A stretch of DNA of 64,000 nucleotides. Origin: an uncultured virus (IMG/VR IMGVR_UViG_3300044843_001102) (lineage: Duplodnaviria > Heunggongvirae > Uroviricota > Caudoviricetes). Positions 4,907 through 57,664 of this stretch are shown here, piece after piece (the first letter of the stretch is position 1; each line of letters begins with the position of its first letter). The translations under genes were made by a program, and so were the position numbers. The stretch lies in the IMG/VR virus record IMGVR_UViG_3300044843_001102; one strand, written 5' to 3'. The notes beneath the pieces are model-generated. The model had not been told where the DNA came from. It did not search any database and was given only the letters and a program-made list of their open reading frames with translations.

Positions 4907-4942
4907 AATTCCTCTCAAGTGGATATAATAATTAGTTAGAAT

Positions 4943-8089: not shown

Positions 8090-8092
8090 TCT

Positions 8093-10183: not shown

Positions 10184-10430
10184 TCTTCATCTTCTTTGGC
10201 TTCTTCAATAATTTTAACTTGTTCTTCTAATACTTTTAATCTTTCTTCCATTAATCTTGCATGTTTTCTTGCTTTACGGAGATTTTCTCTCATAACAGCA
10301 AGACGAGAAGATTCGGAAACAGATGATGGTTTAAAATGATCAACCATTTCTGAAATTACACTTAAATATTCCATTAGGGTAGGCTCTTTCTTTTCGCCCA
10401 ATAGAAAATCTTTTGTCATTTTATGATAAT

Positions 10431-11537: not shown

Positions 11538-11546
11538 AATTATTGT

Positions 11547-12962: not shown

Positions 12963-13028
12963 TTTCTTCTCCTACCCTTGGTATATCTTAAATAGTTTTA
13001 TTTTTCTTTTATTGCCTTTGTTTCTTAC

Positions 13029-15712: not shown

Positions 15713-16088
15713 TATCTCGATTTCTTATATTGTTGATATTCTAGGTAGTGATAAACATCGCTAATTTTTGAGGTTGCTTCTACAATTTTTTCTTGTACCC
15801 ACTCTTCAGTATCACAACCCTCTTCCATTAAATCATGGAGTTTGGCAGCATAAACGGAGAGTTGAAAAAGATTTTGTTTAATCATTTCTTGTTCTTCACC
15901 ACCATCTGTGTGTCCATCATCCATATGCATTTCATAATCATGACTATAGTTGTGATCTTCTTCAAAATCATCATGACCGAAAGAACTGTGAGAACCTTGA
16001 TGAACCTCAACTGGCTCAGCAAATCCAACAAATTGCTCAGAAACAAGTTTTTGATTAACTGCTTTTCTTAGTGTATTAATGTCTAACT

Positions 16089-16880
16089 TCATTTTTTCTC
16101 TCCATGTTGTTTGCCTGTATACTTAATTGTCATACTAACTAGTTCTCTTGGTTCGCCAAAGTGTTTCTCAATGAGATCAATATTTTTTCCATCGTCGTCA
16201 GAAAAACCAACTTTAATTGGCATATATTTATTTATTTTTTGACAATAATCAATAAATTCACCTAATGCTTGAACTTTTGCTTGTTCTGGACTTGCCATTG
16301 ATGCCATTGGTCCAAAAGAAACAGGATAGAATTTACAAAGATCTAAGTATCCCTGAATTGAACTATCTTTATTAGTTTTGTTAAAAAGTTTATTGTATTT
16401 TTGAATATTTCTTTTTACTTCCCCAGAATTAATTCCATCATGATTCGAGATTATATATTTATATACCGCTCTTTTAAGGGTAGATGGTTTGTGTCCTCTT
16501 GCTGTAATAATAGCAAAAATTGATGCTGAATTAATACATTCGACAAAATCATTCCAAGAAGGAGCAGGTTCCGCAGAACGAATATCTTTTAAGAATTGTC
16601 CATCACCTGCAACTCTAAAGTTTCTAAATGGATTTGAGGCGAAGTCTTTTACGACAACACCTTCATAATCAAATTCTTCTTTGCCGATCATTCCTCTATA
16701 GTGAGCAAAATCTTCTGTTCCCATGCCAACTTCATTACCAGATTTATCTAAAAGAATAATTTTTGTTGGCATTTCAACAATATTATCATCCCAGTCAAAA
16801 GCATAATATTTGAAGTTGTGCTCTCCATCTTCAATACCTTCTTCAATATAATTTTGCCAATTTTCTACAATTAATTTCAT
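16089..16880 (-). CDS. HAD-superfamily phosphatase-like protein
   Basis: FDWDD motif I, ITARGH motif II, GFSDDD motif IV. Confidence 0.75.
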   Translation of the reverse strand: MKLIVENWQNYIEEGIEDGEHNFKYYAFDWDDNIVEMPTKIILLDKSGNEVGMGTEDFAHYRGMIGKEEFDYEGVVVKDFASNPFRNFRVAGDGQFLKDIRSAEPAPSWNDFVECINSASIFAIITARGHKPSTLKRAVYKYIISNHDGINSGEVKRNIQKYNKLFNKTNKDSSIQGYLDLCKFYPVSFGPMASMASPEQAKVQALGEFIDYCQKINKYMPIKVGFSDDDGKNIDLIEKHFGEPRELVSMTIKYTGKQHGEKK

Positions 16881-16885
16881 TTTGC

Positions 16886-17245
16886 TTAATCCAATGTTAG
16901 TAGATATTTGAGTTTATTTACTTCTCCAAGCATTTCGTCTCTAATATTCAAAAGATCACTATCTTTTGTCGAATCATATTCTTCGCTCATTTCAATTAAA
17001 AATTGCTCTATTTCTTCAAGATAATCTTTAATTTGAACATCATTCATGTTTGAAACTTGGATTGAACCATCAGTTTTTACTCTACCATATTTGCCCATTT
17101 GGGTTTCAACAAATTGATCGATTAAATCACCCATAGTAGAATAAAAGTCTCCATATGCGTTATGACGAGCATAAGACTTAGTCTGCCAGTGAAGAATTCT
17201 GAATTGTTGTTCGTATTCTATTAATTTATCAATAATATTATTCAT
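16886..17245 (-). CDS. Ferritin/Dps-like protein (DUF5856-like)
   Basis: LHWQTKSYARH..YGDFY...DLIDQFVE and KLKYLLTL. Confidence 0.75.
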   Translation of the reverse strand: MNNIIDKLIEYEQQFRILHWQTKSYARHNAYGDFYSTMGDLIDQFVETQMGKYGRVKTDGSIQVSNMNDVQIKDYLEEIEQFLIEMSEEYDSTKDSDLLNIRDEMLGEVNKLKYLLTLD

Positions 17246-17514
17246 ACAATAAACCTCTCTAACTAAATAGTCGCTTAGAGAGAATTAAGCTTCTGCTGGC
17301 TTTTTATTGTATGCTTGTTTGTAAGATTTTAAATTTTTTAATGATTCACTGATTACTTTATTACCATCTATATTACTTTGTTCTAATTCTTCCAACATAA
17401 ACCAAAGTGATTCGTTTTCATCTTTCAGTTTTTCTATCTCAAACATAAGACGAGAAATCAGTTTTTTTACCTGTTTCTCGTCTAAATATTCGTAATCTTC
17501 CTCTTCACTTTCTA

Positions 17515-17955
17515 TCATTTATCCTCTTTGGATTTTGTTGGAACTGGTTCTGGCATTTTGACTTCAATAGCATCTTGCGGAGGAGATACCAACAATGTAT
17601 CTGATTTTGGAGTTCCTGGTGGGTCGTCCTCTTCATCAATCTTTTGTAGCATTATCTGATCTCTTTGGGAATTATTAAACCAGAAGTCAATGACTCTATT
17701 GTAGGAACCAATGAAGGCACCAAGTATTAGAAGTAGTATCTCTTTCCATTCTTGTTCCATTGTTGCTTTTACCATAATGGAAAGAACGATACCACAGAGA
17801 ATGGCGAGCAATGTAACCATTGTGATAAATGTAATGTACCATCTAACACTCATCATTCTCTGAAAAAGAATGTTGAAACGGTTTGATTTATCTTGTGGAA
17901 CTTGCACTTGACCCTCTGACTTTATTACGTTTGCTAATGCATCTTTTATTGACAT
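17515..17955 (-). CDS. Two-TM membrane protein (holin-like)
   Basis: Two hydrophobic helices ending VIDFWF, located in the lysis-like cluster. Confidence 0.5.
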   Translation of the reverse strand: MSIKDALANVIKSEGQVQVPQDKSNRFNILFQRMMSVRWYITFITMVTLLAILCGIVLSIMVKATMEQEWKEILLLILGAFIGSYNRVIDFWFNNSQRDQIMLQKIDEEDDPPGTPKSDTLLVSPPQDAIEVKMPEPVPTKSKEDK

Positions 17956-17967
17956 TCATTTAATCTC

Positions 17968-18399
17968 CTATAAAATCTTTGCTATGCTTATAACTAGTCC
18001 AGTCGTAACGATAACACCAACTCCGGCACCAATTCCAAACCACAAACCTCTGCTGACTGGCTTGTGACCATTGATTATTTCATTTAATCTTGTTATCTCG
18101 CTATTCTTTGTATCGAGTTGAATCTTGAAGGTTTTTTCAAGCGCTTCCTTTTCATTTTTGCAAGTATCATTTATGAATTTACATTCGCCATCACACTTCT
18201 TTACTAAGAACTCTTTGTCTGCCTCACACTTCTTTATTAACAACTCTTTATCTGTTTCTATTGTGGCAAATGCAGCAGGGTCAAATAGATAACCGGTAAA
18301 TGGAGCCTTCTGACCCTCCTTGATACTTGCTACTTTTCCATCAGCAAATGCTGGCGAAGCAAACATAAAGCATAGAATAATGGCGATTAGTTTGTTCAT
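17968..18399 (-). CDS. Secreted coiled-coil protein with C-terminal TM (spanin-like candidate)
   Basis: Signal peptide, coiled coil, C-terminal TM helix. Confidence 0.4.
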   Translation of the reverse strand: MNKLIAIILCFMFASPAFADGKVASIKEGQKAPFTGYLFDPAAFATIETDKELLIKKCEADKEFLVKKCDGECKFINDTCKNEKEALEKTFKIQLDTKNSEITRLNEIINGHKPVSRGLWFGIGAGVGVIVTTGLVISIAKIL

Positions 18400-18809
18400 G
18401 GAACATCCTCTGTTATTGGAACAACTTCAAAACCAAACTTGTGAGCAAGGTTGTCGAGAACAACTTCTGGGTCTTGTTTGATTTTCTTTGTGAGTTCTTG
18501 AATCTTTGTAACACGCAAATCTTCTAACTCTTTTACCTTTTGATCGTATTCAAGTTGTAAAGAGTCAAGATGGTTTTTGTATTCTTCCATCAATAACTTC
18601 TGCTTTGCTATTGTTTCAGCATTTACTTTATTAATTTGTTCTACTTGAGCATCATAAGCTTTTCTCTGTTTTTCTAGTTCTAAAACATGTTGATGTTGTG
18701 CTTCTTCAAGCGCATCTTTATCAAACTGATTTTTAAACCAGAGACAAGTAGCTAGAATAATTGTAAATACTGCCAGTGTGGGTAGGTTGTCTTTTAACCA
18801 AGTTTTCAT
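18396..18809 (-). CDS. N-terminal TM coiled-coil protein (i-spanin-like candidate)
   Basis: Single TM followed by a long coiled coil; adjacent to the endolysin. Confidence 0.45.
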   Translation of the reverse strand: MKTWLKDNLPTLAVFTIILATCLWFKNQFDKDALEEAQHQHVLELEKQRKAYDAQVEQINKVNAETIAKQKLLMEEYKNHLDSLQLEYDQKVKELEDLRVTKIQELTKKIKQDPEVVLDNLAHKFGFEVVPITEDVP

Positions 18810-18818
18810 TTATACCTC

Positions 18819-19757
18819 TTAGAACCAGTTGACGCCATAAACGTTATCTTTTACTTCGCTCCAGTATACAAACTTTTGAGCTTCATTTAAGGAGTAAACT
18901 TTTAATAATTCTTCACCAAACTTAGAAACATTCTTTGTTAGGGCTTTGTCATATTGGAAATGCCACCATTCAGCACCACCATAGGCTCCACCCTCAAAGA
19001 AACTCTTTCTTGCTGAAATGTTTACGAAACCATGCTTGGCTGCGACTTCTGTGAAATTGAAGGCTTTTACAGTCATCTTCTTTGTTTCTAGAACGGTTTT
19101 ACCGCCTTTTGTTCTACAAACAACGGCATCTAGTGTAACTTCTGGAGCATTTGGTGATTTGCACCACACGGTCCATTTACGAGTTCCTTCAACTCTTACA
19201 CAGAGATAAGGATCTGTATCGAAGTTTTGCATACCAGTTGCCAATGACATATCAAAAGCTAAACCAGTATAATGCATGGAGGTCTTTGATCTTGCAGGAC
19301 CAGCACCAGAGCTTAGGGCACGACGACCACCAGCAGAGGTTACGACACCACCAAGGGCATTTACTTCGGCTTTTAGATTCTTATAAACCACGGAAGCATC
19401 GGTTCTTAATACTGTTGAACCGTAACCGTCTTTACCAGCGACTTTATCGGCGGGGCATGTAACCCAGCCCATCTTTACAGCAGCTTCTTGAACAACTGCG
19501 GGGGGTTCTTCTGGTTGGTCATCAAACTCTGCGCCTTCTTTACCAGCAGCTTTTAGAGCAGCATCAATTGCTTGTAATGTTTTTGGACCAACAACACCGT
19601 CTGCACCAAGACCTTTCTTTGTTTGAAAATCTTTTACAGCGGCTTCTGTATTCTTACCAAATGCTCCATCTACATTGCCCAATTCATAACCTAGATCTTC
19701 TAGGTTTTGTTGCAAAGATGCAACCACTGGACCTGTCATACCTCTTTTAATTAGCAT
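18819..19757 (-). CDS. Endolysin: PG-binding domain + peptidase M15-type catalytic domain
   Basis: VDGAFGKNT..ADGVVGPKT; SMH..GLAFD and EWWHF zinc motifs. Confidence 0.85.
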   Translation of the reverse strand: MLIKRGMTGPVVASLQQNLEDLGYELGNVDGAFGKNTEAAVKDFQTKKGLGADGVVGPKTLQAIDAALKAAGKEGAEFDDQPEEPPAVVQEAAVKMGWVTCPADKVAGKDGYGSTVLRTDASVVYKNLKAEVNALGGVVTSAGGRRALSSGAGPARSKTSMHYTGLAFDMSLATGMQNFDTDPYLCVRVEGTRKWTVWCKSPNAPEVTLDAVVCRTKGGKTVLETKKMTVKAFNFTEVAAKHGFVNISARKSFFEGGAYGGAEWWHFQYDKALTKNVSKFGEELLKVYSLNEAQKFVYWSEVKDNVYGVNWF

Positions 19758-19790
19758 AAATTATCCTCCGTTTGGTATTATAAATAGTTT

Positions 19791-20699
19791 CTAAATGTCG
19801 AAGAAGATTGGAATATCTGAATTCGGTCTGAATCCAAAGTTTCCACTATGTAGATCCAGTGTTACGTGATAACCGTTTTTAACAAATGCTTCGTCCATAA
19901 TTTTATATAATTGTAAACAAATACCTATAAATTGTTTTTCAGATAATTGACGAAGCAAATTTCTAATATCAAAAATGCTGTACAAAAGTCTAAAAAGATT
20001 TTTATTATCACCTATTTTTAAAAGGTGTTCTATTCTTTCTCCTTCATAATCTGATGCACGTGTATCTTCTTTTATTTTTTTTGTTATACTTGTTTTTCTA
20101 AAATCTTGTGTTGCATGTTTCAAATCTACAATATTCATAATTATATATTTAATTCTTGTTCTAATAATATCATTCATTACATCATCAGTGGTCATTGGTT
20201 TTCCTGTTTTACCAGATATACCAGTTTGCGCTGCTTTCGCCATAACTGTAGCGGAGATAAATATCTTATCGTTGCTTCCTATAGTTGCAAATCCTTTTTC
20301 AGAATCTAAAACTCTTAATTCTTTGGGATCAAAATCATCTTGTTCTTGTTTTTTGTAAAGATGAGTGATGTATTCAGTTCCAACTTCTCCGCCTTCATGT
20401 ATAGCATCTTCATCAAGAATTTGAAATTTTAAAATATAATTTTCATGTGGATCTTTTAATGTAAAGGCAAGACCCATTGCTCCTTTACCTAAAAGTTCAT
20501 CAATCTGGTATTCACTCATTATTTTTATAGTATTTGATTCTTTTAATGCATTTATAAATTCTTCTTCAGTATAAAATCTTGATAAATTTAATAAAGTTGC
20601 ATTACCTCTTTCTGGAGATATAAATGAAATATATCGAAGATTATGATTAAGGAAGTTTCTTGTTCCTTCGTTTAATAAAAATTTATACCAATTAATCAT
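19791..20699 (-). CDS. Atypical protein-kinase-like protein
   Basis: LGKGAMG loop, ILK lysine, DLHSGN catalytic loop, terminal FFD. Confidence 0.7.
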   Translation of the reverse strand: MINWYKFLLNEGTRNFLNHNLRYISFISPERGNATLLNLSRFYTEEEFINALKESNTIKIMSEYQIDELLGKGAMGLAFTLKDPHENYILKFQILDEDAIHEGGEVGTEYITHLYKKQEQDDFDPKELRVLDSEKGFATIGSNDKIFISATVMAKAAQTGISGKTGKPMTTDDVMNDIIRTRIKYIIMNIVDLKHATQDFRKTSITKKIKEDTRASDYEGERIEHLLKIGDNKNLFRLLYSIFDIRNLLRQLSEKQFIGICLQLYKIMDEAFVKNGYHVTLDLHSGNFGFRPNSDIPIFFDI

Positions 20700-22933
20700 T
20701 TAAGTATTCTCCAAGTTGCCCCGTCTAATTTAAATAACCTATTTTTCTTTTCTTCAATATATTCTTGATATTCTTGACCATCGCGACCTTTTAATGTTTG
20801 AGTAAGTCTTCTTTGCGATAAGTCTGCAGGAATATACCCGCCTTTATCTCTTAAAGATTTCATGTTTTCTATGATTTCTAACATTTTTTCTTTTCTCATT
20901 TCGTTTGCTTGTATAACAATCGATCTAAAAGCTTGAAAAATTTGAGCATAATTGTTATTTAAATAAGTTAAAAATTTAATAAATACTTCTCTATTTTTAT
21001 TTCTGTCTTGACCAGCGGTTAACTCTTCTTCATCATCGTATTGAATAATTGATCTAAATATGTAATAGTCTGCAATTGGTCCAATTTCCATGTTAAAATT
21101 AATATTAAACTTTGAAAGGTTATTTAAACCAGCTTGTAAATCAGATCCAGTTTTTTCTTGTGATAAAAATAAATCTGGTTGTTTTGGTGTAAATGAATTT
21201 CCACTAAGAAAGTTTTCTTTTATTTGAGAAACAGTGTTTAACATCGCCTCTTCTAAATAATCTCTTCTTATTGCATAGGTAATGTTAGGATCTCTATCAT
21301 AAAGTGTTGTATCAATTTTTTCTCTTGTTTCTTGAGGTTGTTGATTAACAATTTCATTTTTTATTTTTTCAAAATCATTTAGAAATCTCATTTCTTTTAA
21401 TCTTGTAAAAATAATTCCGTCTTTTATTTCAATATTTTCAAGTTTATTTAGATTTAAATTTTTTATTTTTTCAAAATATTCATTTTCTATAACTCCGTAA
21501 GTTATATATGCTGATTTAATAGATAACAAAGCCGATGAGTAATCTTCTTCAGCATAAAATAAATCGCGAGCAAATATTTCTAAACCATCTACGCTGGTTT
21601 CATAATCCTCATCTAAATCAATTAAAAATCTAAATTCTGGAAAATATTTTCCAGGTTCTTTTTCAAAATATTCTACACTCATGTCGCCACGAAACATATA
21701 TTTAAAATTAGTTAATTTATCTTGTACTAAATTTTCAACTGCTTTTGCTTTGGCAACATCAACTGCTTCGTTAAAATCAATTACAAATCTTGCAGTTGCA
21801 TTAACTATAATTTCTTCTTCTCCAACATCAACATCGGCAGATAGAGAAGCATGTTTGCTTTGATTATTAAAATTTTCTACTATTTCTGCAACTCTTCCTT
21901 CTACTTCTTCCCTTTCTGATGTAGATGCTCTATAACTTGTCTCATATTTAAACTTAAATTCATTTCCATAAAACTCTTCAAACAATTCTCTTCCTGGATG
22001 ATCTTGATATGATCCTCCGGTTAGAAAAAAATAATCCAATCTTACAACAGGATCTCTTGATTTGCTTACAACATCTTTAAGTTTCGATGTCATATCAGTT
22101 TGTTTTTGTTGAACAAAACTAGCAATTGCTTCGTAGAAACCTTCAAAAGATTGTCCATAAACTCTTTGCTCTGGTATTCCTAGTTCAATTCCTTGATATT
22201 TATCAGTTCCAACAAATCTTCTGATTCTTAATCTTGATAGAGGCTTGATACCAGAAACTTGTCTTTCCCAGTCGGCAAATATTTCTGCTTTTGTTAAATC
22301 AAGTCCTTGAACATCATCGTTATTAACAACGTATGCAATTGCTCCGCCATCAACCGCTTCTGAGACAGCACACTTAAAATAACTACCGTGTGTTCCGTGA
22401 CAAGAACTCCAACCATCATGATCAGACATTCTTAAAATATCCATTGGAACTCTAGAAATTATAATTGTATATTTTTTATTAAAATAAAATTCATTCTCTT
22501 TTGTTGTATAAAACTTATTATGTTTTTGCCAAAACTCACTTGCTTCTCTGCCCATTTTGGCGAACAAAGGACCAAGTCGTTCTTTTCTTTTTGTTTCAAA
22601 TGTTTTGCCACCATATTCAGATTTAACAATTTTTGTGGCATAACCAAATGGTTCATTAAAATCGATTGTCCAACCTTCGTTCCTTAACATATTGATATAT
22701 TCAATCATTTCGGCATCTCTGCCTGTATAATTCGTTCCCGTATTAAAAGGAATTAATATACGATTTTGCCCTTCAAATATGTGATTTAATTGAGTTGTTA
22801 CATCTTCTTTTTTAGAAATATAAGTTTGTAATTTTGTGCCTCTAAGTTTTTCACGAGTAATCTCATTTAATTGATTATCGATTGCTTCCAATAATTTTTG
22901 ATAAAGACTTTTCTTTTTCATATTAAATTCCAA
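20696..22933 (-). CDS. Large hypothetical phage protein
   Basis: 745 aa; SRVPMDILRMS..GWSSCH motif. Confidence 0.55.
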   Translation of the reverse strand: MEFNMKKKSLYQKLLEAIDNQLNEITREKLRGTKLQTYISKKEDVTTQLNHIFEGQNRILIPFNTGTNYTGRDAEMIEYINMLRNEGWTIDFNEPFGYATKIVKSEYGGKTFETKRKERLGPLFAKMGREASEFWQKHNKFYTTKENEFYFNKKYTIIISRVPMDILRMSDHDGWSSCHGTHGSYFKCAVSEAVDGGAIAYVVNNDDVQGLDLTKAEIFADWERQVSGIKPLSRLRIRRFVGTDKYQGIELGIPEQRVYGQSFEGFYEAIASFVQQKQTDMTSKLKDVVSKSRDPVVRLDYFFLTGGSYQDHPGRELFEEFYGNEFKFKYETSYRASTSEREEVEGRVAEIVENFNNQSKHASLSADVDVGEEEIIVNATARFVIDFNEAVDVAKAKAVENLVQDKLTNFKYMFRGDMSVEYFEKEPGKYFPEFRFLIDLDEDYETSVDGLEIFARDLFYAEEDYSSALLSIKSAYITYGVIENEYFEKIKNLNLNKLENIEIKDGIIFTRLKEMRFLNDFEKIKNEIVNQQPQETREKIDTTLYDRDPNITYAIRRDYLEEAMLNTVSQIKENFLSGNSFTPKQPDLFLSQEKTGSDLQAGLNNLSKFNINFNMEIGPIADYYIFRSIIQYDDEEELTAGQDRNKNREVFIKFLTYLNNNYAQIFQAFRSIVIQANEMRKEKMLEIIENMKSLRDKGGYIPADLSQRRLTQTLKGRDGQEYQEYIEEKKNRLFKLDGATWRILK

Positions 22934-23659
22934 TTAAAATTTTCTTAAAAATCTTGACAACATATCTTCTTCTGGTTCTTTTGGATCAGATTTTTGAGGA
23001 GAAGCAGAAGAAATCGGTTTAATTTCCCCTGGAGGAGTTACTGTTCCCTTACTAATATTTCCTGAACCAGGAATTAAATACATATTTAATTCTTCTCTTC
23101 TTCTCTTTTTTAATCCTAAAGAAACTTTTCCTCCAACAGTTGCAACTTCATCAGATAAAAAAAGATCTTTTACTTTTGGATCATCTGGATTTAAACTTGC
23201 TACCGTAAACAATTCTGTGTCTAAAAATCCTTTATTTCCCATATTATACATAACAGAGGCAAGAGCATCTATTTGATTTTGTGTCAATGGTTTATCTTTA
23301 AGGTATCGATTCAAACTAGGCATAACAATCTGGTTTAAATAATCAAGCATTAATTGATTTGCTTGTTGCTCTGTTACTGGTTTGTCATCTAATGTAACAG
23401 CAACTTCTTTACCATTTTTTACATAATAAGTTGTCCCATAACCAATTGTTGGTCTATCGCCCTTCTTTTGATATGGACTACTTTTAAATGCCTCTCTTGA
23501 TTTTAAAAAGGAAATTAATTTTGGACTATAAGTATATGAGAATTTACCAGGAGTTGGAGCCTGTGGGGTTTTAACTTGTGGTTTAACTTTTGGTTTGATT
23601 TGTGGTTTAACTTCGTTTAAAATATGTTTATGCCATTCTGTTAATAATTGTTTCATCAT
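22934..23659 (-). CDS. GH24 lysozyme (muramidase)
   Basis: E..Y....PTIGYG, NQIDALAS..YNMG, GLKKRRREE. Confidence 0.9.
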   Translation of the reverse strand: MMKQLLTEWHKHILNEVKPQIKPKVKPQVKTPQAPTPGKFSYTYSPKLISFLKSREAFKSSPYQKKGDRPTIGYGTTYYVKNGKEVAVTLDDKPVTEQQANQLMLDYLNQIVMPSLNRYLKDKPLTQNQIDALASVMYNMGNKGFLDTELFTVASLNPDDPKVKDLFLSDEVATVGGKVSLGLKKRRREELNMYLIPGSGNISKGTVTPPGEIKPISSASPQKSDPKEPEEDMLSRFLRKF

Positions 23660-23760
23660 ACCAATAAATAGTCAAAGAACCTAGAAACAGGATAAAAGTC
23701 AAAGACCAAAATCGCGAAATTTTTCCAAAAATTTTTTTTGAATTTGTTTATTAAAATTTG

Positions 23761-24351
23761 TTATTGTTGCTGCGCTTTTCTCGCAAGATCTGTTATTGCT
23801 CTTGAAATTGCAGCATCTCTTGCAAGACCAAAATTTTTCATACCAGACACCTTGCCAACACCAACTATTCCTGGTGCATCTGGACTTGTAACCGTAGCTG
23901 TTACAGTACCATCATCGTCCACTTTTATTTCTGGTGAGTCAATCCTGCCTTTAAATCTATATTCAGTTACTTTTGGCTGTGAGGCTGGTTGATCTTTTGC
24001 TTGTTCTTGCGCTTGTGTTGAAGGTTTGGAACGAATTGAATTCAAGAATTTTGCAACATCCATGTTTCCATAACCTTTCCAAAAATTAAACAATTCAGGA
24101 TCTTGTTGTGCTGTATCCCTTGCTTTATTTAACGCAATTGTTGAAACCTTTTGACTTAATGCTGATTTGGGATTTGTTCTATAAGCAACAAGTTCATTAA
24201 TTGCTGGTTCAATAGAAGATAATTTATTTGGATTATCTTTTACATATGTCATCAAATATCCAAGAGCACTAGCAATGACATCTTGACTTGGAGCTTGTTG
24301 AGCAGTTTGCTCGTTAATATATTTTCTCCACTCAGCAATTAATTCTTTCAT
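23761..24351 (-). CDS. Hypothetical protein with the shared N-terminal leader
   Basis: MKELIAEWRKYINE start. Confidence 0.55.
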   Translation of the reverse strand: MKELIAEWRKYINEQTAQQAPSQDVIASALGYLMTYVKDNPNKLSSIEPAINELVAYRTNPKSALSQKVSTIALNKARDTAQQDPELFNFWKGYGNMDVAKFLNSIRSKPSTQAQEQAKDQPASQPKVTEYRFKGRIDSPEIKVDDDGTVTATVTSPDAPGIVGVGKVSGMKNFGLARDAAISRAITDLARKAQQQ

Positions 24352-24376
24352 TTAAAATACCTCTTTGTATAAATAG

Positions 24377-24907
24377 TTATATTTTTTTATAGTTCTTGTT
24401 TCTAAAAACCTCACAATCAACATAATTACAATAATTATCGGTTGTTTCATAACCGCGCTTTTTTAACATTTTAACAGGAACTCTTGAAGCAACAAGTTTT
24501 TTCCAATGTCCAGAATTTTCCAATGCTTTATCAATAACTTTGCTTGCCAAATCAAGACCACGATACCAAGAATCTACATATACATTTATCAAACCATATG
24601 GACTATACTTATCCTGTGTTATAGCAGCAATTGCAACAGGTCGATCTCCATCATATGCAACCGCAGCAATATCATTTTCTCCAGGATTTAAATATGCATC
24701 TGTTTGCAAAGACCAACTTGGAACTCTTAATTTTTTTATCTTTTTATCATCTACCAATAAGTCTCTTAACTTTCCAAACTTAATTTTAAAATCAACTTTG
24801 TTTATGTCGAATCCTGGAAATCTTGGATATTTTTGTTCCTCCGGAACGACCACATCCGTTAATTCCTCATTGACATACTTTCTCCACTCTGTTAAAATTT
24901 GTTTCAT
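24377..24907 (-). CDS. GNAT acetyltransferase
   Basis: VYVDSWYRGLDLASKVI acetyl-CoA motif A. Confidence 0.7.
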   Translation of the reverse strand: MKQILTEWRKYVNEELTDVVVPEEQKYPRFPGFDINKVDFKIKFGKLRDLLVDDKKIKKLRVPSWSLQTDAYLNPGENDIAAVAYDGDRPVAIAAITQDKYSPYGLINVYVDSWYRGLDLASKVIDKALENSGHWKKLVASRVPVKMLKKRGYETTDNYCNYVDCEVFRNKNYKKI

Positions 24908-25524
24908 TATTTAAGTCCAATTAGTGTTAAACAAAGATCATCATTATTTCTAAAATAATTTATGTTCTGAATTTCTTGAGGTGCTCCTACATATTTTTTA
25001 ATAAGATTTTGTTCAAGAACGTTTATATTTTGTTCCACCCAATCTGGATACTCTTGATTTGGAAATTGTTTTTTATATTTATTGTATTCTTGATTAATAG
25101 CAATTAATATAGTATTATTAATTTGTGCATAATTATAAGCAGTTCTTGGATCTCTTGGACACTTTGCTTTTAATTCTTTAAGATATTGTTCTGGTTCCAA
25201 GATTTCAGATCCCGATTCTTGTTCATATGCAAAAATTGATTTTGAATCATTTAGCATTTCCAAAACTTTTTTTATATTTTCTGGTTTAAAGTATGATTCT
25301 TGTTTTGCAACACTTGCTTGTTTAGGATCTGGTTCAAACATTGTTACAACAATTTTCTTACCATTCTTCTTTTGAAGGAACTTCATGCAAGTTCCTTTTT
25401 GACCCTTATAAGCACAAGTTGTAGGAGAAAGATCTGAGTCTCTTGTTTCTGGTTCTTCTTTGATTCGAATCCAATTCTCTTTGAGAATAAAATTACGCCA
25501 CTCTGTTAATAATGATTTCATCAT
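24907..25524 (-). CDS. Hypothetical protein with the shared N-terminal leader
   Basis: MMKSLLTEWRNFILKE start; ACTATTTA upstream. Confidence 0.55.
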   Translation of the reverse strand: MMKSLLTEWRNFILKENWIRIKEEPETRDSDLSPTTCAYKGQKGTCMKFLQKKNGKKIVVTMFEPDPKQASVAKQESYFKPENIKKVLEMLNDSKSIFAYEQESGSEILEPEQYLKELKAKCPRDPRTAYNYAQINNTILIAINQEYNKYKKQFPNQEYPDWVEQNINVLEQNLIKKYVGAPQEIQNINYFRNNDDLCLTLIGLK

Positions 25525-25847
25525 AGATTAAATAGTGTGAGACTTGACAAAAAAGTTCAAATCTGGGAAAATTATAGGCGCGTTGAAAGAGGGTCAAGCA
25601 AACCGTTTATTCGCGATACTGCGCCTTGAAACATAAATTCCGGTTTCCATTCGGTTTAGAAGGGGGAGGGGGAGGGGGCATTGTTTGTGCCCTGAACGAT
25701 GTTTGACTTTGCTGCAATGCTTTGCTGTTAAACGTTTATTCATTAATCATTTAATCGAAATGAATATTCCTTATGCTGGTCTGCAATGTTTAAACAGGGT
25801 TGATTAACATTTCGCTAGGCGCTGATAGAACCTTATCACACGTTTGG

Positions 25848-29941: not shown

Positions 29942-30016
29942 TGGCTTGCACAAGCGGGAGTCGAACCCGCATCACGCGTATATTCACGCGCACTTTCCAT
30001 TTAGACGATTGTGCAA
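29942..30016 (-). ncRNA. tRNA-like RNA with aberrant anticodon loop and extended acceptor stem
   Basis: Perfect T-arm GCGGG-TTCGACT-CCCGC, 8-bp TTGCACAA/TTGTGCAA stem, GCCA end; CGCGT-GAATAT-ACGCG with a 6- or 8-nt loop. Confidence 0.7.
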
Positions 30017-30019: not shown

Positions 30020-30128
30020 GCCGTGCTTGTCATCCACGGTTGGATGGGTTAGCTTCCAATCGGCGTAACCGTCGCCTGCTGTGCTGTTCAACCACAGCGG
30101 GATGGGTTCACTTCCAATCGGTGGAACC
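30020..30128 (-). ncRNA. Two tandem copies of a two-hairpin RNA motif (CCGAUUGGAA loop)
   Basis: Compensatory stem changes between the copies; conserved loop, bulged C and CATCC linker. Confidence 0.6.
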
Positions 30129-31308: not shown

Positions 31309-31351
31309 CGATGCGGAGTGGGTGAACGCGAAGCTCACCGCCGACTTAGGG

Positions 31352-32010
31352 ATTGTACACCAAGTAGATTCGCTTGTCAAGAGCTTGCAGTATCACGTTT
31401 CCGATTTCTGCTTCTCTCCGTCGTTTCGCGAACCGCTCAGGCTCGCTCACATTCAGGAGTTTACCACAACTTCGAACCGTTGTCAAGCCCTCGCAGTATC
31501 GCGTTTCTCAGTACCGCGTTTCTTAATCTCGGCAACCGCTCAGGTCGCCGTCACAGTCAGGATCTTACCACAACTCGGAACCGCTGTCAATACCTCGCGG
31601 TCTCACGTTTCGGTTCAGTTAGCCGTTCAGCAGAATAACCAATTTGGCAATCGTCAGACCAAGAACAATACCCTTCAGTGCGTCATTCGTAATCGACATT
31701 TCGCCTCCTTGCGGAACCATTCCGCGTTTAGTAGTCTACCACAACCAGATTCGGTTGTCAAGCCCTCGCAGTATCACGTTTGCGAATCTACTCGGTTTTC
31801 AAGGAGCGTTTGCGGTTTCAGAGCGCGAAGCCCGTTTCCCGCGTTGACCTTAGTAGCTTACCACAACTTGGAACGGTTGTCAAGACCTCGCAGTCTCGCG
31901 TTCCCCGGTTTGCCGTTTGCCGTTTCGAGAAACCGCGCAGGTCTCTCGCTTTGACTTAGGTATCTTACCCGATCTGTTTGCTGGCGTCAAGACCTCTCAG
32001 TCTGCCGTTT
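31352..32010 (-). repeat. Tandem array of six sigma70 promoters with a conserved upstream element
   Basis: -35 boxes at 31375, 31481, 31585, 31756, 31878 and 31985, each 17 bp from a TAnnnT -10 box; shared AAACGyGAkACyGCGAGG upstream. Confidence 0.9.
31619..31699 (-). CDS. 26-aa hydrophobic micropeptide MSITNDALKGIVLGLTIAKLVILLNG
   Basis: AAGGAGG RBS 4 nt before the ATG, directly downstream of one array promoter. Confidence 0.7.
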   Translation of the reverse strand: MSITNDALKGIVLGLTIAKLVILLNG

Positions 32011-37988: not shown

Positions 37989-38396
37989 TCATAGCTTCAT
38001 CACTTCAAAGTGCCCGTATTCAGTTGAGTAAAATACTCTCTTGACTCCACAGAATCTCATTGCCTCTTGACACATTGGACAGGGCTTGGAGTTTCTGTAT
38101 TGATTCTCGTAATTCACTCTCACCACATAAATATCAGAACCTTCGGTTGACTCACGGGGCATATTGAGGATTGCCCCAAGTTCAGCATGGAGAGTTGCCT
38201 GACCCTTTGATCTACAACGGAATCTGCTTCCAAACGAACAAGGCTTATCCTTGTTGTGGGAAGCATTAAGGACAACACCATGGTGAACCAAAACAGCACC
38301 ATGACGAAACTTCCCGTAACTGGAAAGTTCCGCCATTCTCTTTGCGAATCCAAAGAGTCGCTCGTTTCTTCTGGTAAGTTCTATTCTGTTTGCCAT
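37989..38396 (-). CDS. Cytidine/dCMP deaminase-family protein
   Basis: HGAVL, LHAE, PCPMC. Confidence 0.88.
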   Translation of the reverse strand: MANRIELTRRNERLFGFAKRMAELSSYGKFRHGAVLVHHGVVLNASHNKDKPCSFGSRFRCRSKGQATLHAELGAILNMPRESTEGSDIYVVRVNYENQYRNSKPCPMCQEAMRFCGVKRVFYSTEYGHFEVMKL

Positions 38397-39204: not shown

Positions 39205-39563
39205 TGGTGGATCTGGCGGGAGTCGAACCCGCGTCTCACATAGTTTTTATGATTACTCATTCACAGGAATAGTCAAGCACCCAACCTACCCTTGACAAAA
39301 CACCTGGGTTACAGGGACTTCATACTGATTTATTCAGGGCAAAACCAGTTAGAAAAGCCGATGAATCTTGTTTTCGATAAGATTCCAACCTATCCAAACT
39401 TATTTTACAGAGTGTTTGGAGACTCCGTGATTTAAGCCGCTACGGCGTAATCAAAAGCAACGTTGTCGTTGGCAATTAAACATTTAAGCGTTTTTACGAT
39501 GCCTCGCTCCCCATCGTCCTGCATAATCATAAAACTCTACCCGATCGATACCATTTCAGACCC
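39205..39563 (-). ncRNA. ssrA: tmRNA (one-piece), tag ANDNVAFDYAVAA
   Basis: GGGTCTG/CAGATCC acceptor stem with G3-U70, GGTTCGACTCC T-arm, ACCA end; tag ORF 39473-39432. Confidence 0.95.
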
Positions 39564-40118: not shown

Positions 40119-40883
40119 TCATTTCTTCTTTGAAAGACTTTCTTCTATTGATCTAATATCTTTATTAAGTTTCATAATCTCAGCATTAAGAACTTTAACT
40201 CTCTTATTAAACTCTCTATCTTCCTTGATCTCAATTCTATTTGCTGGACTGGTATTTACAATCTCTTCTGTCATAGCGATTGAGGACTTAACACCATCAG
40301 ATTTGGAATTGCATTTGGTCTGCTCTTCCTTTTCCTTCTGCTCCCGCTTCTGTGAGTCTTGCGATCTTTGTGAATTTTCCATTTTCTTTGCTCTTCTTGC
40401 TTTTGTCGATGAAGATGCTACGGAAGAAACAACAGAGGCAATAGCAGCGGTTGCGATTGCTCCAGCAACGATTGGATCAATTACACCAGAGTTAACTGGG
40501 TTTATATCTCTACCTGTTGTTGGAGGAATAAGGGTAGATTCCACCACAGGTATTGTAGGTATGGTGGGGTCGTGTATGGGTGGTGTGGTGTCGGTGGGTA
40601 ATACGACAGCAGTTTCAGTTTTATGAATCTTTGGTTTTGGTTTCTCTCTTTTAATAGCGATCAATTTTTCCTCCTTTGGTTCTTCTTCTCTATAAACCAA
40701 CTGAGATCCACTTTGTAAATCGCAATCCGATATGTCGCTTATGATTGAACCATCAGGCATTCTGTATTTGCCCGATGATAATATCTCAACTTTCTCACCA
40801 GATTTGACAACACAAGCGGTTCCTTGTTTATCTTTGGTAAGTGTAGCAGAGGTTGCTTCTTTTGGCAAGAGAGTTTCATCCAA
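40119..40883 (-). CDS. Membrane-anchored hypothetical protein
   Basis: Pro/Thr linker, TM helix, coiled coil. Confidence 0.55.
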   Translation of the reverse strand: MDETLLPKEATSATLTKDKQGTACVVKSGEKVEILSSGKYRMPDGSIISDISDCDLQSGSQLVYREEEPKEEKLIAIKREKPKPKIHKTETAVVLPTDTTPPIHDPTIPTIPVVESTLIPPTTGRDINPVNSGVIDPIVAGAIATAAIASVVSSVASSSTKARRAKKMENSQRSQDSQKREQKEKEEQTKCNSKSDGVKSSIAMTEEIVNTSPANRIEIKEDREFNKRVKVLNAEIMKLNKDIRSIEESLSKKK

Positions 40884-40886
40884 TTC

Positions 40887-41360
40887 TTATTTCCCCTTCT
40901 TGGTTGATTCTACCTGCTCCTCAAGTTTTTTAACTTTCTTCTTTACTTTCTTTACGGCATCTTCAATTGATTCAAGTGTTTCTTGATTGGAGACTTTGAT
41001 TTCTTCTGCTTTCTTTTCTGCCGTTGTTGCTTTTGATTCAATATCAGAGATTTTTCCTTTTAACCCTGAAACTTGTGATTCTAGTTCTTGTTGTTTGGCG
41101 ACACATTGTTCGTGTCCCGTTCCAACAGAAACCTTTGATGCTTCAATTTCAGCCATCTTTTGTTCGTGTTGTTGTTCTTGTCGTTGTTTGAGCCAATCCC
41201 AAACTTTTTTACCGCCCAAAACGGCAATAGCACCTAGTGCAACAATCATCATAGGATTGCCTCCACTTAGGTGCGCCAATTGGTTTATGTCGATTTCGCC
41301 GTTTGATACGGCGCTAGAAACATGATTTGCTAAGTCAACTTGTGCTAATAGGTTTAACAT
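40887..41360 (-). CDS. TM + coiled-coil hypothetical protein
   Basis: IVALGAIAVLGGKKVW followed by a coiled coil; ACTATTTA and GGAGG upstream. Confidence 0.6.
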   Translation of the reverse strand: MLNLLAQVDLANHVSSAVSNGEIDINQLAHLSGGNPMMIVALGAIAVLGGKKVWDWLKQRQEQQHEQKMAEIEASKVSVGTGHEQCVAKQQELESQVSGLKGKISDIESKATTAEKKAEEIKVSNQETLESIEDAVKKVKKKVKKLEEQVESTKKGK

Positions 41361-41404
41361 TCATAGATCCCTCCCATTATATAATAAATAGTATAACAGA
41401 AGGG

Positions 41405-41546
41405 AACAAACACTGGGATTTCGGAATTATCAAGTTCCATGATACCCTGAATCTTTTTAACATGTAGGATTTGAACCTACATCGCCCGGCAATCCGGGAA
41501 TTTACCACTTTAAACTAATGCAAGCTTTCTACTTCCAGTGTTTGTT
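41405..41546 (-). ncRNA. tRNA-mimic RNA embedded in a 12-bp closing stem
   Basis: AACAAACACTGG/CCAGTGTTTGTT enclosing a D-loop (AGTGGTA), CCCGG-ATTG-CCGGG and T-arm GTAGG-TTCAAAT-CCTAC. Confidence 0.65.
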
Positions 41547-41550
41547 GGTT

Positions 41551-41715
41551 ATCCAGGATTGCGGTTAAGAGTTATTTTGTTACAGGGACCATATATTGAT
41601 GTTGTTAAAAACTAATCTCACTGGTTGAGCCTTCTTTAACCTACCTAACGGTCAGGATCCTATTCAATCCAATCATTCAAAGTGATTTTAACCAATCTTT
41701 CGGCTACTTCTGGAT
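41551..41715 (-). ncRNA. Candidate 165-nt rod-shaped ncRNA (6S-like architecture)
   Basis: Nested stems ATCCAG/CTGGAT, GATT/AATC, GGTTAA/TTAACC, central bubble, GTTAAAGA/TTTTTAAC, CTCA/TGAG. Confidence 0.5.
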
Positions 41716-41791
41716 TGGTGCCGTCGAAGGGAGTCGAACCCCTGACCGCCTGATTACAAATCAGATGCTCTACCAACTGAGCTACGACGGC
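41716..41791 (-). tRNA. tRNA-Thr(TGT)
   Basis: Cloverleaf, loop TTTGTAA, CCA. Confidence 0.93.
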
Positions 41792-42136
41792 ATATCTAAA
41801 TCTACTTCTCTAAATTTTACCTTACAAGTTTTTCTCTTATTACCATTAGAATATATCCAAGTTTTTCTTATCCAATCTCTTGGTTCTGGAAAATAATCAA
41901 TTTTTAGTTTAATTACTTTCATTCTTTTACTATACGAGATCCGTGTTTATTTTTTAAGATCTCAAACAAACTTTTTGAAACCATACGAACTTCTTTGATA
42001 TTCATTGCTTGTTTAAACCAAAGAAATCTAGCATTACCTTCGAAAATGCTCATTCCGAGTTCTCGGTGAGATAGAATGTAGTAGTCTTTGCCGTCAAAAA
42101 CGAATTCTACTGCTTTCATAACTCACCTCTTTTTAG

Positions 42137-42220
42137 TGCTCCCGGTGAGACTCGAACTCACATAACTAAATAGTTGGCAGATTTTAAGTCTGCTGCGTCT
42201 ACCTGTTCCGCCACAAGAGC
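42137..42220 (-). tRNA. tRNA-Leu(TAA)
   Basis: Cloverleaf with variable arm, loop CTTAAAA. Confidence 0.92.
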
Positions 42221-42228
42221 ATGATGCT

Positions 42229-42257
42229 AGTCTACACTAGCTGGAGGTTCCTGTCAA
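42229..42257 (-). promoter_or_regulatory. sigma70-type promoter
   Basis: TTGACA-17-TAGACT immediately upstream of tRNA-Leu. Confidence 0.8.
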
Positions 42258-42616
42258 CCTGCCTCTTTAATTGCCTCTACGATAGAGATTGGTTCACAAT
42301 CATAATCAAAACATTTCCAATATCCATTGTCGTATAGGTAATAATATTCTATCCAACAATTCTTGCCTCTATCAAAAAACAAATCAATATTGCTGTATTC
42401 TCCGATAGATCCATCTTGATAGAATGAGCAAGTATCTATTGTTTCTCCTAAAACAGAGAGATCTCCTTTCGAAAGCAACGAATCAACTTTATCATCTGTT
42501 TCATAATTCTGAAGAAGGATTTTTCCATTGTGAGAAGGATAACCATCCCAATGACAATAAATAGCGCTGATAGTTTGATCTTGATTAACTTTTCCGATAT
42601 AAGATCTAGTTGCCAT
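42254..42616 (-). CDS. Conserved phage hypothetical protein
   Basis: MATRS.IG...IYCHWDGYP motif. Confidence 0.7.
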   Translation of the reverse strand: MATRSYIGKVNQDQTISAIYCHWDGYPSHNGKILLQNYETDDKVDSLLSKGDLSVLGETIDTCSFYQDGSIGEYSNIDLFFDRGKNCWIEYYYLYDNGYWKCFDYDCEPISIVEAIKEAG

Positions 42617-45075: not shown

Positions 45076-45153
45076 TGGTGCGCCCGGTTGGATTTGAACC
45101 AACATACCATCGCTTATAAGACGAATGCCATTAACCAGTCGTGCCACAGGCGC
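45076..45153 (-). tRNA. tRNA-Ile(TAT)
   Basis: Cloverleaf, loop CTTATAA, A73, CCA. Confidence 0.8.
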
Positions 45154-55267: not shown

Positions 55268-56341
55268 CTAACCAATATCAGATGGTTTTGGTTCTGGTAA
55301 GTTTAATTGACTACTAACTTTCTTCTCTCTTGGTTTTGGTTCTGGCTCTGGTTCTAATGAAGATAGGTCAGTGCGAACATCCAAGAAGTTAATAACTGCT
55401 TTTAGAACATCCAAAAGCATTGTCACATCGGCAAGAGCATCATGCCAGCCCTTGTTTTCTACGTCAAATGCCTTAATAATCTTTCCTAAGGATACAGTTA
55501 GTTTACCCTTATCTGAGGTTAGAGCATCGAGAATCTTTGAATCTTCTGGACTTAGTTCTTCTCCTGCTTCTCTGGTCGCCTTAAACATTTTTAGTGCAGG
55601 GGTTAAGAACTTTCTGAAAATCATAACTGTGTCAACAACAATGTCATCAGGCGGAACTTCTCCAATTCTTTGATACATGTTATTTAAGAATCCATTATCG
55701 AATGGAGCATTTTGAGCAACTAGAATTCTATCTGGATATCTATCTAGAAATTCGTTGAATTGCTCTAGTGCTGGAACAAGTCTCATAAATGTAGCGGACT
55801 CTGGTACATCTTCCATTGAGATATCTTCTTTTCCAGGCATTTCTCTTGCCTGTAAGAACGCTTTTCTTCTTGCCTTTTCTGGATCTCTTGATACACCATA
55901 TTGTGTCATAGAGAAAATATCAGAAATGCCTTTGAACTTCTCTGGTTCTTGTCTTATACGCTTAATGCCGGGGGCTACCTCTACCCCAGCAGCACGGGCG
56001 GCGGCTCGTTTCTCTGCTTTCTTACTACGATCCCAATCCATAAAACCACGGGTTCTATCTCCCAACTGGATCTTAACATTAAATTTCTCTAGAATCTCTG
56101 GTTCTTCATCAAAGTTTTTAACATCGACAGCGATTGCTGCTATTTGAGTAACTTGGTGGAAGTCCTTTTCAGCAGAAAGACCTGTTGTTTCTGTATCAAA
56201 GAATATCCATGTCTTATCTGATGCATCTTTGATAAGTTCTCTCATTTCTTGAAACGAGGAACCATATTCAGAATAACGCATTACGTCTTCTTTAATTACT
56301 TTTTTGTAGTTTCTCCAATTCTCAAATAACTTTTGATACAT
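55268..56341 (-). CDS. DEDDh 3'-5' exonuclease (DnaQ-like)
   Basis: FFDTETTG, AQNAPFD, HDALAD. Confidence 0.88.
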   Translation of the reverse strand: MYQKLFENWRNYKKVIKEDVMRYSEYGSSFQEMRELIKDASDKTWIFFDTETTGLSAEKDFHQVTQIAAIAVDVKNFDEEPEILEKFNVKIQLGDRTRGFMDWDRSKKAEKRAAARAAGVEVAPGIKRIRQEPEKFKGISDIFSMTQYGVSRDPEKARRKAFLQAREMPGKEDISMEDVPESATFMRLVPALEQFNEFLDRYPDRILVAQNAPFDNGFLNNMYQRIGEVPPDDIVVDTVMIFRKFLTPALKMFKATREAGEELSPEDSKILDALTSDKGKLTVSLGKIIKAFDVENKGWHDALADVTMLLDVLKAVINFLDVRTDLSSLEPEPEPKPREKKVSSQLNLPEPKPSDIG

Positions 56342-56361: not shown

Positions 56362-56892
56362 CTAAATAGTATGCGAAATCGATTTCATCGCTTCTGCCAT
56401 CAAAATTCCGCTTGCTGTACCAACATTGAGACTTCTAACTGAACCAATCATTGGGATATAAACATAATCTTCGCAGAGATCGAGTATCTCGTCGCTCAAT
56501 CCCTTTGACTCTTCGCCAAAGATAAACATGGTATTCGGTTCAATTTTATAATCAAAGAGAGAAACACAATTTCTTTCGATGTTGCATTCAATCGCAACAA
56601 ATTTATACTTGGACTTTAATGCTTTAATCGCATCAATATCCTTCAAATGAGATACGAGGGAGTAGTGGTGTGTACCCACCGACCCCCTCTTGTCCCATCG
56701 CTTTTGTCCAAAGTAAAATAGTTCTTTGCAACCAAATGCATTAGCATTTCTTACCGCCGTGGACATATTGAAATCACCCTCGACATGCGACATTAAACAC
56801 GCATACGGGAGGGTGTTTCTTTGTACATCTTCTTTGATTAAATCAACTGACCACTCTGCATACTTACTCTGAACATTCATCTTCATACTCAT
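56362..56892 (-). CDS. SpoU/TrmH-family RNA 2'-O-methyltransferase
   Basis: N.STAVRNANAFG, FGEESKGL, IPMIGSVRSLNV. Confidence 0.88.
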   Translation of the reverse strand: MSMKMNVQSKYAEWSVDLIKEDVQRNTLPYACLMSHVEGDFNMSTAVRNANAFGCKELFYFGQKRWDKRGSVGTHHYSLVSHLKDIDAIKALKSKYKFVAIECNIERNCVSLFDYKIEPNTMFIFGEESKGLSDEILDLCEDYVYIPMIGSVRSLNVGTASGILMAEAMKSISHTI

Positions 56893-57664
56893 AATTGGAA
56901 ATGTAATCGTTTGAATTAACTTTAGAAACAAATTCTCCACAGGATTGGTCAAAGTAAACAAATGGCCAAAATCCACCACTTTGTATATCACCTGCTCTTG
57001 GAGCATATCGAATGCAATTACCAGCCCATTGTGCAGAATTAGGAACTACGCTTTTGAAATATATACAATTTTCACACTTAATCATAATACCTCTAATTCA
57101 GAAATGTCGTTCACATGAAACCAGTGAGAGATCGGCTTCTCATCTTCAATGTACGACACCTCAAAGTTCTCGTCAAACAGGATTGAAGTGACCAAACCTT
57201 CACAAGTAAAAGTCCTGAATTCAAGAGGGCGAATACTACGAACTAGTTTTACTCTTACGAACTGCCCTACTTTTGGTTGTTGATTTTTCATTCTTGACCT
57301 CGTTTTTATCAGCTACGAGGACTTTAACTGTGCATCTTGCTCTGCAACTATTGAACACGGTTGGGAACTCAATAGTTGATTTCACCCATTTGATTACTTC
57401 ATCCTCAGATGAAAAATATCTTGAAAAGATTAAAGTCTCTGTAGCTTTTTTGTAGTTTACACCAGAACCAACTTCTTTCCAATCTTTAAAGACTGGATCA
57501 ATTACCTTAGTATAAACTCCTCTTTTAATTCCGTCAATCTGGAATCTATACTCTACACTGTCTTTATCTCTTACATACGCCCAAATTGAACCTTTCATTT
57601 TCATACAGAAGGGAAGTTGTTAACTTCCCTTCCCTCCTCTACTATAAGTATAGTGTTGTTTTTG

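Follow-up and report, generated by a model that had tools for sequence, protein, structure and literature searches.

What is the element on the minus strand at positions 41405-41546 of this viral DNA, where parts of a tRNA appear to be set into a much longer hairpin, and what could a phage gain from it? The stretch analysed here, hereafter the window, makes up the initial 64 kb of a virus record that measures 77.5 kb and has an estimated completeness of 37%, and its minus-strand RNA genes comprise 15 tRNA calls and one tmRNA. A preliminary description, made from the sequence and naming no strand, had presented the element as a lone tRNA-mimic unit. The unit is indeed present, but it forms only half of a tandem pair. 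The 142-nt RNA, called e2 here, follows a sister RNA, e1, that had been missed, and the pair lies right behind tRNA-Thr(UGU) and ahead of a gene of 157 codons (Table 1). Comparison of related sequences indicates that e1 and e2 are a real, selected phage RNA pair of the tRNA-mimic kind, with a junction core in common and a tRNA elbow as the head of one member.

Table 1. Features of the e1/e2 locus. Positions are those of the window; paired strands are separated by a slash.
Feature	Positions	Strand	Remarks
Sigma-70-like site before tRNA-Leu (42136-42220)	42229-42257	-	candidate transcript start
tRNA-Thr(UGU), encoded CCA	41716-41791	-	e1 starts on the next base in 5/5 loci examined
Sister RNA e1, 165 nt (L003 copy 106 nt)	41551-41715	-	same core as e2
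e1 P1	41710-41715/41551-41556	-	6 bp
e1 J1/2	41705-41709	-	
e1 head, hairpins A and B	41655-41687	-	loops kept in window, L002, L003, L009 and L010
e1 hairpin A, 5 bp, 7-nt loop ending UUGAA	41671-41687	-	UUGAA in 5/5 loci
e1 hairpin B, 5 bp, loop GAAWAK	41655-41670	-	
e1 J2/3	41642	-	
e1 P3 base	41636-41641/41563-41568	-	
e1 J3/1, GCAAUC	41557-41562	-	
Linker e1-e2, 4 nt	41547-41550	-	4 nt in L002 and L009; 7 nt in L003
RNA e2, 142 nt: P1, junction core, tRNA-like head on P2, hairpin P3	41405-41546	-	
e2 P1, 5' strand	41535-41546	-	12/12 pairs
e2 P1, 3' strand	41405-41416	-	pairs with 41535-41546
e2 J1/2, AAGUA (consensus RAGYA)	41530-41534	-	8/8 distinct full copies of e1 and e2
e2 P2 and tRNA-like head	41449-41529	-	P2 is 41522-41529 with 41449-41455
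e2 acceptor, 4 bp	41518-41521/41460-41463	-	no CCA
e2 U8-A9 and D arm, loop AAAGUGGUA	41499-41517	-	tRNA model match; D loop with GG at 41503-41511
e2 anticodon-like arm, 5-bp stem, 4-nt loop AUUG	41485-41498	-	length and sequence not conserved
e2 T arm, loop UUCAAAU	41464-41480	-	
e2 3'-strand bulge	41456-41459	-	4, 11 and 5 nt in window, L002 and L003
e2 J2/3, single A	41448	-	core linker
e2 hairpin P3, closed by two G-C pairs	41423-41447	-	'extra hairpin' of the preliminary description
e2 J3/1, GAAAUC	41417-41422	-	core strand
ACTATTTA motif, probable phage promoter of the next gene	41385-41392	-	13 nt past e2
157-aa gene, downstream, synteny marker	40887-41360	-	two relatives have the gene without the RNA pair

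The whole anatomy first proposed for e2 was recovered: a perfect closing stem, a D-loop with the GG, a short anticodon stem capped by four nucleotides, a canonical T-arm and an acceptor of about 4 bp lacking CCA. The additional hairpin exists as well, but it is not an extra, being one arm of a conserved three-way junction. The 12-mer of the closing stem occurs exactly in the window at its two stem sites only, and this stem, P1, counts 12, 12 and 11 pairs in the homologs from L002, L009 and L003, respectively. A match to the Rfam tRNA family (RF00005) covers 41456-41524 with 34.9 bits, above the gathering threshold of 29, and shows the shortened anticodon loop; no Rfam family fits e1 or e2, and ARAGORN at default settings did not call e2 as a tRNA. 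The 142-nt sequence folds at -44.1 kcal/mol (z -4.15), a stability reached by none of 200 shuffles. Its minimum-energy fold contains the closing stem, the anticodon arm, the T arm and the hairpin P3, lacks the D arm and the acceptor, and engages J3/1 in a rival pairing; the energy of the cloverleaf-plus-junction model exceeds the minimum by 15 kcal/mol in the window and by 8 kcal/mol in L002 and L009. Since the energy model alone forms neither, the D arm and the acceptor rest on comparison with relatives.

Such relatives were reached through the downstream gene, which led to four loci (five with an alignment). L001 is identical to the window over this stretch, L002 (e2 at 4623-4771) and L003 (e2 at 4804-4955) hold diverged copies at the same place, and two of the five gene-carrying contigs, L004 and L294, possess the 157-aa gene while the RNA pair is absent from these partial contigs. 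A metagenome scan yielded four loci: L008 and L011 of the L002 type, L009, a close variant, and L010, with a partial e1 near that of the window. The e2 alignment comprises four rows from three lineages, whose e2 copies are 59-64% identical. Both partners change in 20 of the 44 pairs of the model, 85% of the cells being paired; by stem, such changes affect 6 of 12 pairs in P1, 4 of 6 in P2 and all 4 of the acceptor. None of 500 shuffles reached this count and slid controls gave 2-4 pairs, a comparison whose significance the shuffles overstate because only three lineages are independent and two of the four rows (L009 and L002) are 97% identical. The structure model was drawn from the very rows in which covariation was counted, so that this evidence is strong while falling short of a formal test. 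In the two other lineages the homologs are thus not ordinary tRNAs deprived of an outer stem, the outcome that would have undone the preliminary description; the outer stem is kept by compensatory changes.

Within the tRNA-like module, conservation is concentrated at the elbow. U8, A14, A15, G18, G19, A21, U48, G53, the T-loop positions and C61 are invariant across the three lineages, and altogether 15 of 15 elbow positions are invariant compared with 13 of the 45 other module columns (Fisher p 7e-7), or with 11 of 30 when the poorly aligned anticodon arm is left out (p 2e-5). The anticodon loop measures 4, 5, 5 and 4 nt in the window, L002, L009 and L003, never 7 nt, and reads AUUG, GUGUA or, on a lengthened arm, ACUA. 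No CCA stands at the expected place in any of the four e2 copies, and the acceptor of 4-6 bp runs into the 3'-strand bulge and further stems instead of forming a 7-bp helix with a free NCCA. The falling tRNA score across lineages (34.9, 28.9 and 12.9 bits) and the position of e2 in a tRNA cluster could suggest a decayed tRNA that landed by chance in an inverted repeat or a small mobile element. The loss is however non-random, an outer stem that changes on both sides and a single copy at a fixed place do not suit decay, and neither does a second RNA with the same core; this explanation is hardly credible and is refuted for these three lineages. An elbow that is kept while anticodon and CCA are lost points to selection on the elbow rather than to tRNA decay. 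We consider it very probable that e2 is an elbow mimic that does not decode; it presumably cannot be charged, and its D and T loops would meet in a three-dimensional elbow.

Both RNAs are built on one core, in the order P1, RAGYA, P2, A, P3 (with two G-C pairs), GMAAW-M and P1 again. Its elements RAGYA, A, GG-CC and GMAAW are common to all eight distinct full copies of e1 and e2. Searching the 77-kb contig with a descriptor of this core retrieved e1 and e2 and nothing else; the outcome was the same in L002, L003 and L009, and 30 Markov controls gave no match. Less can be drawn from e1 by itself: it is not more stable than its shuffles (z -0.51 and -1.48, the former for the window copy), and 6 of its 40 pairs change on both sides, P1 being uninformative on covariation because it is invariant. 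For the L003 copy the minimum-energy structure is nevertheless the three-way junction, and at the foot of P2 L010 has an A-U pair where the others have G-U. Taken together, e1 and e2 are very probably a selected pair of structured RNAs. The GCAA/GAAA strand of the core fits the GNRA pattern. A loop-E or bulged-G module may arise from the AGUA and GAA strands, but the latter is GCA in e1.

A catalytic or ligand-binding core would likewise offer unpaired strands with almost no variation, held in a compact three-way junction. It could be a small ribozyme trimming the tRNA transcript by self-cleavage, or else a tandem aptamer, with the head as a folding aid. The position of e1 against a tRNA 3' end recalls the theta ribozymes as they are presented in PMC10879173. 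Against this, no ribozyme or riboswitch family of Rfam 15 (theta/HDV-like, hammerhead, yybP-ykoY, glnA and others) matched the 421, 351 and 291 bases searched at E-values up to 10, and a nested double pseudoknot was not seen. Between the 5' end and the core there are 6 bp in e1 and 11-12 bp in e2, a disparity at odds with a single core that cleaves at the 5' end, and a head that only assists folding could do without the full set of 15 elbow positions. A catalytic or ligand-binding core is therefore quite unlikely. Partial likenesses of short strands to the hammerhead, SRP helix 8, the yybP-ykoY L1 loop and the glnA E-loop came without an Rfam match and were dismissed. A likeness of the core strands to the GTPase-associated centre of 23S rRNA (loops of H43 and H44) was also considered. 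In Escherichia coli 23S rRNA, AAGCA at 1069 and CGUAAUAG at 1092 fit the core strands; as such a pair arose in 122 of 500 shuffles of 16S and 23S sequences, the likeness is not above chance and the idea that the core mimics this centre was set aside. The H43 and H44 loops themselves contact each other, as noted in the ribosomal work of PMC2952862.

The surroundings of the pair bear on how it would be made. In L002, e1 still abuts the CCA although the body of tRNA-Thr differs in sequence. The ACTATTTA motif downstream of e2 is counted 13 times on the minus strand of the contig versus once on the plus strand, mostly 15-30 nt before a start codon (further minus-strand examples lie at 25529-25536 and 19781-19788), a distribution that marks it as a probable phage promoter. 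As the 157-aa gene has this promoter-like motif of its own and, in L002, another reading frame separates it from e2, the pair is unlikely to be the leader of that gene. The sigma-70-like site ahead of tRNA-Leu is a candidate start for a transcript of tRNA-Leu, tRNA-Thr, e1 and e2; such sites are not above chance, with 6 found versus 4.5 expected. A terminator scan of 40800-42400 found none. Elsewhere on the minus strand, a phage tmRNA with the tag ANDNVAFDYAVAA is encoded at 39205-39563, about 2 kb downstream of the pair as in all three lineages, and a tRNA-Ile with the rare UAU anticodon at 45076-45153 is present in L002 too.

Standing at the end of a tRNA run and 13 nt before the next promoter-like motif, e2 might be a cis-acting mark of processing or stability. 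Its head would call RNase P or RNase Z, or block exonucleases, and would thereby define the 3' terminus of the tRNA transcript and free e1, with no role in trans. Plant mitochondrial t-elements and mascRNA are tRNA-like marks of this sort that call RNase P or RNase Z, and an elbow kept while the anticodon is lost is what they need. The acceptor of e2, on the other hand, is only 4-6 bp long before the bulge in its 3' strand and is enclosed by two more stems, and a processing mark gives no account of why e1, which has no elbow, keeps the same core. RNase P moreover cleaved only YrlA with a 7-bp acceptor in the assays summarized in PMC4201824. We regard a purely cis-acting mark as rather unlikely.

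A weak hint of expression comes from public RNA runs. Part of 40900-42300 is contained in 7 of the 10 listed runs, and contigs of four RNA runs from four studies (X1, X2, X4 and X5) were compared with the locus; they have a depth of 2-6, are unstranded, stem from runs chosen for holding the stretch and may derive from DNA in the libraries. Contigs of three of the four (X1, X2 and X4) cover e1/e2 with few differences. Among the pieces listed for X2 and X4, e2 is covered over 142 and 134 of its 142 bases, in agreement with the depth table, half of e1 is covered, the next gene over 13 and 0 of 461 bases and the upstream region over none of 336 bases. X1 covers parts of both the pair and the next gene, and X5 the next gene only. 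At least 13 differences, counted among those listed, spare P1, the T arm and the junction strands (p 0.02); they are located in loops, the linker, the D stem and the anticodon arm. The latter is 5 nt shorter in the X2 and X4 contigs, and the GG of the D-loop is retained in the run contigs through a one-base shift. Both the X2 and the X4 contig end at 41630, where X1 continues through, a coincidence that carries no weight.

Contigs of X1, X2 and X4 also cross the linker between e1 and e2, which, although contigs cannot prove one transcript, would agree with both units being domains of a single RNA of about 310 nt, either joined or self-assembling through the repeated core. The linker of only 4-7 nt and the order of e1 and e2, fixed in three lineages, favour such an arrangement; each unit has nevertheless its own closing stem and a full core, and joint folds of e1 and e2 gave no pairing between them. 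One RNA is accordingly a doubtful reading, though one to be taken seriously, and a single molecule of 311 nt is compatible with the docking and elbow roles discussed below.

As a whole, these features are best explained by a shared docking core combined with an elbow effector, a proposal to which we give an even chance of being correct. According to it, tRNA-Thr, e1 and e2 would be made as one precursor and cut out by processing, the cut at the tRNA 3' end creating the 5' end of e1. Each RNA would be clamped by its own terminal stem P1, protecting the ends, and P2 of the common core would carry an exchangeable head, so that the heads of e1 and e2 may face different targets. The core would act as a common docking site, for one protein of phage or host origin or for an RNA-RNA contact. 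The head of e2 would present the tRNA elbow, composed of the two loops (D and T) and their tertiary partners, while its acceptor end is buried in RNA and its anticodon arm is free to drift. Such an elbow could serve as bait or tether for a host factor reading tRNA elbows, for example a defence protein that cuts or senses tRNAs, an enzyme of modification or processing, or a nuclease complex. The window also encodes, on the minus strand, a SpoU-family RNA methylase (56362-57006) and a zinc deaminase (37989-38396); enzymes of both families act on tRNA, and these two could be partners of the mimics. A bolder version is unlikely: a core unrelated to the Ro60 site would carry interchangeable heads taken from tRNA parts, and the pair would be a tRNA decoy split in two, with the elbow in e2 and an anticodon-like stem-loop in e1, assembled on one protein or as an RNA dimer, that soaks up or steers host tRNA-cutting or tRNA-sensing defences. 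The end of the e1 loop, UUGAA, would then read as a Gln-type anticodon with its 3' neighbours.

Other unusual elements occur in the window. A second tRNA look-alike devoid of anticodon lies at 29942-30016 (minus strand); it has a full acceptor with CCA, a T arm and a 7-bp stem capped by the 4-nt loop AAUA, and a DNA search of five related contigs gave no match to it. Directly upstream, at 30020-30128 on the same strand, a stretch free of genes holds two direct repeats of 51 nt, 78% alike, which could represent a further non-coding RNA in tandem. At 31349-31918, adjoining a tRNA-Arg, a non-coding repeat of about 67 nt occurs five times with a spacing of 104-171 nt, a candidate promoter array or origin. 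Many proteins without a Pfam family encoded at 7160-25524 and 55268-56341 (minus strand) have the N-terminal motif M..L...W..F in common.

The pair is narrow in distribution, being known from three lineages of uncultured phages. Among the matches of pattern scans of viral sequences, only the known members were recognized (3 of 3, 3 of 15 and 3 of 91, the model R2 being run on 80 of the 91). A screen with the relaxed descriptor gave no member among the 119 matches listed, and its extra matches, which have closing stems of 5-8 bp and no recurring features, were attributed to chance. A further scan gave no member among 112 matches, with 28.3 bits as the best score of model R1 on 80 of them. A scan of GTDB for the pair found none, and that for proteins two weak unrelated matches. 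When R1 and R2 were applied to 22 records, strong scores were obtained only in the three training records; in the other 19, found mainly through the tmRNA motif, R1 remained at or below 28.2 bits, a level to be expected of ordinary tRNAs, and R2 detected nothing. Neither model matched in G023. Among 50,697 GenBank phage records, blastn with the pair of the window or of L003 revealed no homolog beyond tRNA-like words, and the nearest PhoH match is only 38%; for both reasons, no cultured relative or host was found. The literature contained no description of the pair that we could find, and in a catalogue of 10,006 viral candidate RNAs (PMC10690425) a core string and three contig identifiers were unmatched in the supplements searched, others of which may list it. 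The pair is thus apparently undescribed, and e2 may belong to a new class of tRNA-mimic non-coding RNA.

The comparison resolves RNAs of unexplained role from a tRNA cluster into a common core and swappable heads, and demonstrates selection on a tRNA elbow alongside the loss of anticodon and CCA. It also provides a junction motif usable for searching, and small RNAs (106-165 nt) that are easily made and offer clear mutation targets for the role of elbow mimics in phage.

Among known systems, phage T4 has a similar order, a tRNA ending in CCA followed by the stable RNAs rnaD and rnaC (species 2 and 1) of 119 and 139 nt. Like e2, rnaC is the second RNA of a phage tRNA cluster and has a T arm, but this arm occupies the 3' end, a closing stem that encloses a D arm is absent, and the relaxed core descriptor gave no match in L047. 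The function of rnaC and rnaD is treated as open for decades in PMC3014915 and PMC9697503. GOLLD, with a tRNA in its linker, and ROOL are likewise phage non-coding RNAs near tRNA islands, some of which embed a tRNA (as introduced in 10.1101/2024.12.08.627333); they are far larger, of another build and without an Rfam match here. Theta ribozymes resemble e1 as structured RNAs directly behind a phage tRNA (PMC10879173, in its outline), yet their HDV-like fold is not seen here and e2 does not follow a tRNA. The SpF41 sRNA (RF02435), whose consensus likewise has a short anticodon loop, matches the head and the next hairpin of e2 with 25.3 bits (E 0.075), below its gathering threshold of 52; the match includes neither closing stem nor core and was not seen in L002 or L003.

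The bacterial Y RNAs come closest in design. In YrlA and YrlB (RF02553), as portrayed in PMC4201824 and 10.1101/312249, an elbow mimic without free CCA is likewise carried on a larger RNA, with a tandem partner devoid of the full tRNA module. YrlA is however a circular permutation (T-AS-D according to PMC4201824) joined through the anticodon stem, unlike e2, which reads D-AC-T and is joined through the acceptor. This difference of order had been noticed in the preliminary description; it stands, but its weight is smaller than was thought, since Deinococcus Yrn1 has been modelled with its anticodon arm between D- and T-like arms (PMC4201824, in the models it gives). Deinococcus radiodurans Yrn1 and Yrn2 (RF01053) are two RNAs with a common module, made with tRNA-Asp as one precursor, which offers a precedent for the layout, and in one of the two a terminal stem encloses D-like features together with a T arm and a short anticodon-like arm (both in the account of PMC4201824). 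Their module is a bulged Ro60 helix, whereas that of e1/e2 is a three-way junction, and the D loop of e2 is fully tRNA-like.

Could e1 and e2 then be a divergent Y RNA pair that binds a host Ro60, or a phage Ro60 encoded beyond the sequenced part, and diverts the decay or repair of RNA? The succession of a tRNA, an RNA without the tRNA module and a D/AC/T RNA does mirror tRNA-Asp, Yrn2 and Yrn1, and NCCGAA before and in J3/1 of e2 comes near the motifs GNCGAA(N)G and GGUCCGA (both as set out in PMC4201824). This look-alike is placed at the 3' end, where NCCGMAAW occurs in 8 of 8 copies; its final G is absent from all eight, CCGC stands in all four e1, and neither motif was found near the 5' end of e1 or e2. 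The window e1 has GCCGAAAG after J1/2, an element absent from L002, L003, L009 and L010. The search for Ro60/TROVE or RtcB proposed at the outset returned neither: TROVE (PF05731) was absent from five contigs that are 25-61% complete, with a control positive in 2 of 14 genomes, and RtcB from the same number of partial contigs. Here the pair is flanked by about 40 kb and 36 kb without TROVE, compared with the 4 kb within which nearly all YrlA are reported to lie from Ro60 in the survey part of PMC4201824. RF01053 matched none of three contigs at E-values up to 1, with the D. radiodurans control over its cut-off, and RF02553 matched neither RNA in five contigs. Binding of a Ro60 by a divergent Y RNA pair is thus distinctly improbable, and by the tests run e1 and e2 are not members of the bacterial Y RNAs. 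A docking core with an elbow effector would nonetheless follow the same logic as these RNAs, and if e2 proved to be a true decoy or tether operating without Ro60, the Y RNA design would have arisen again in phages.
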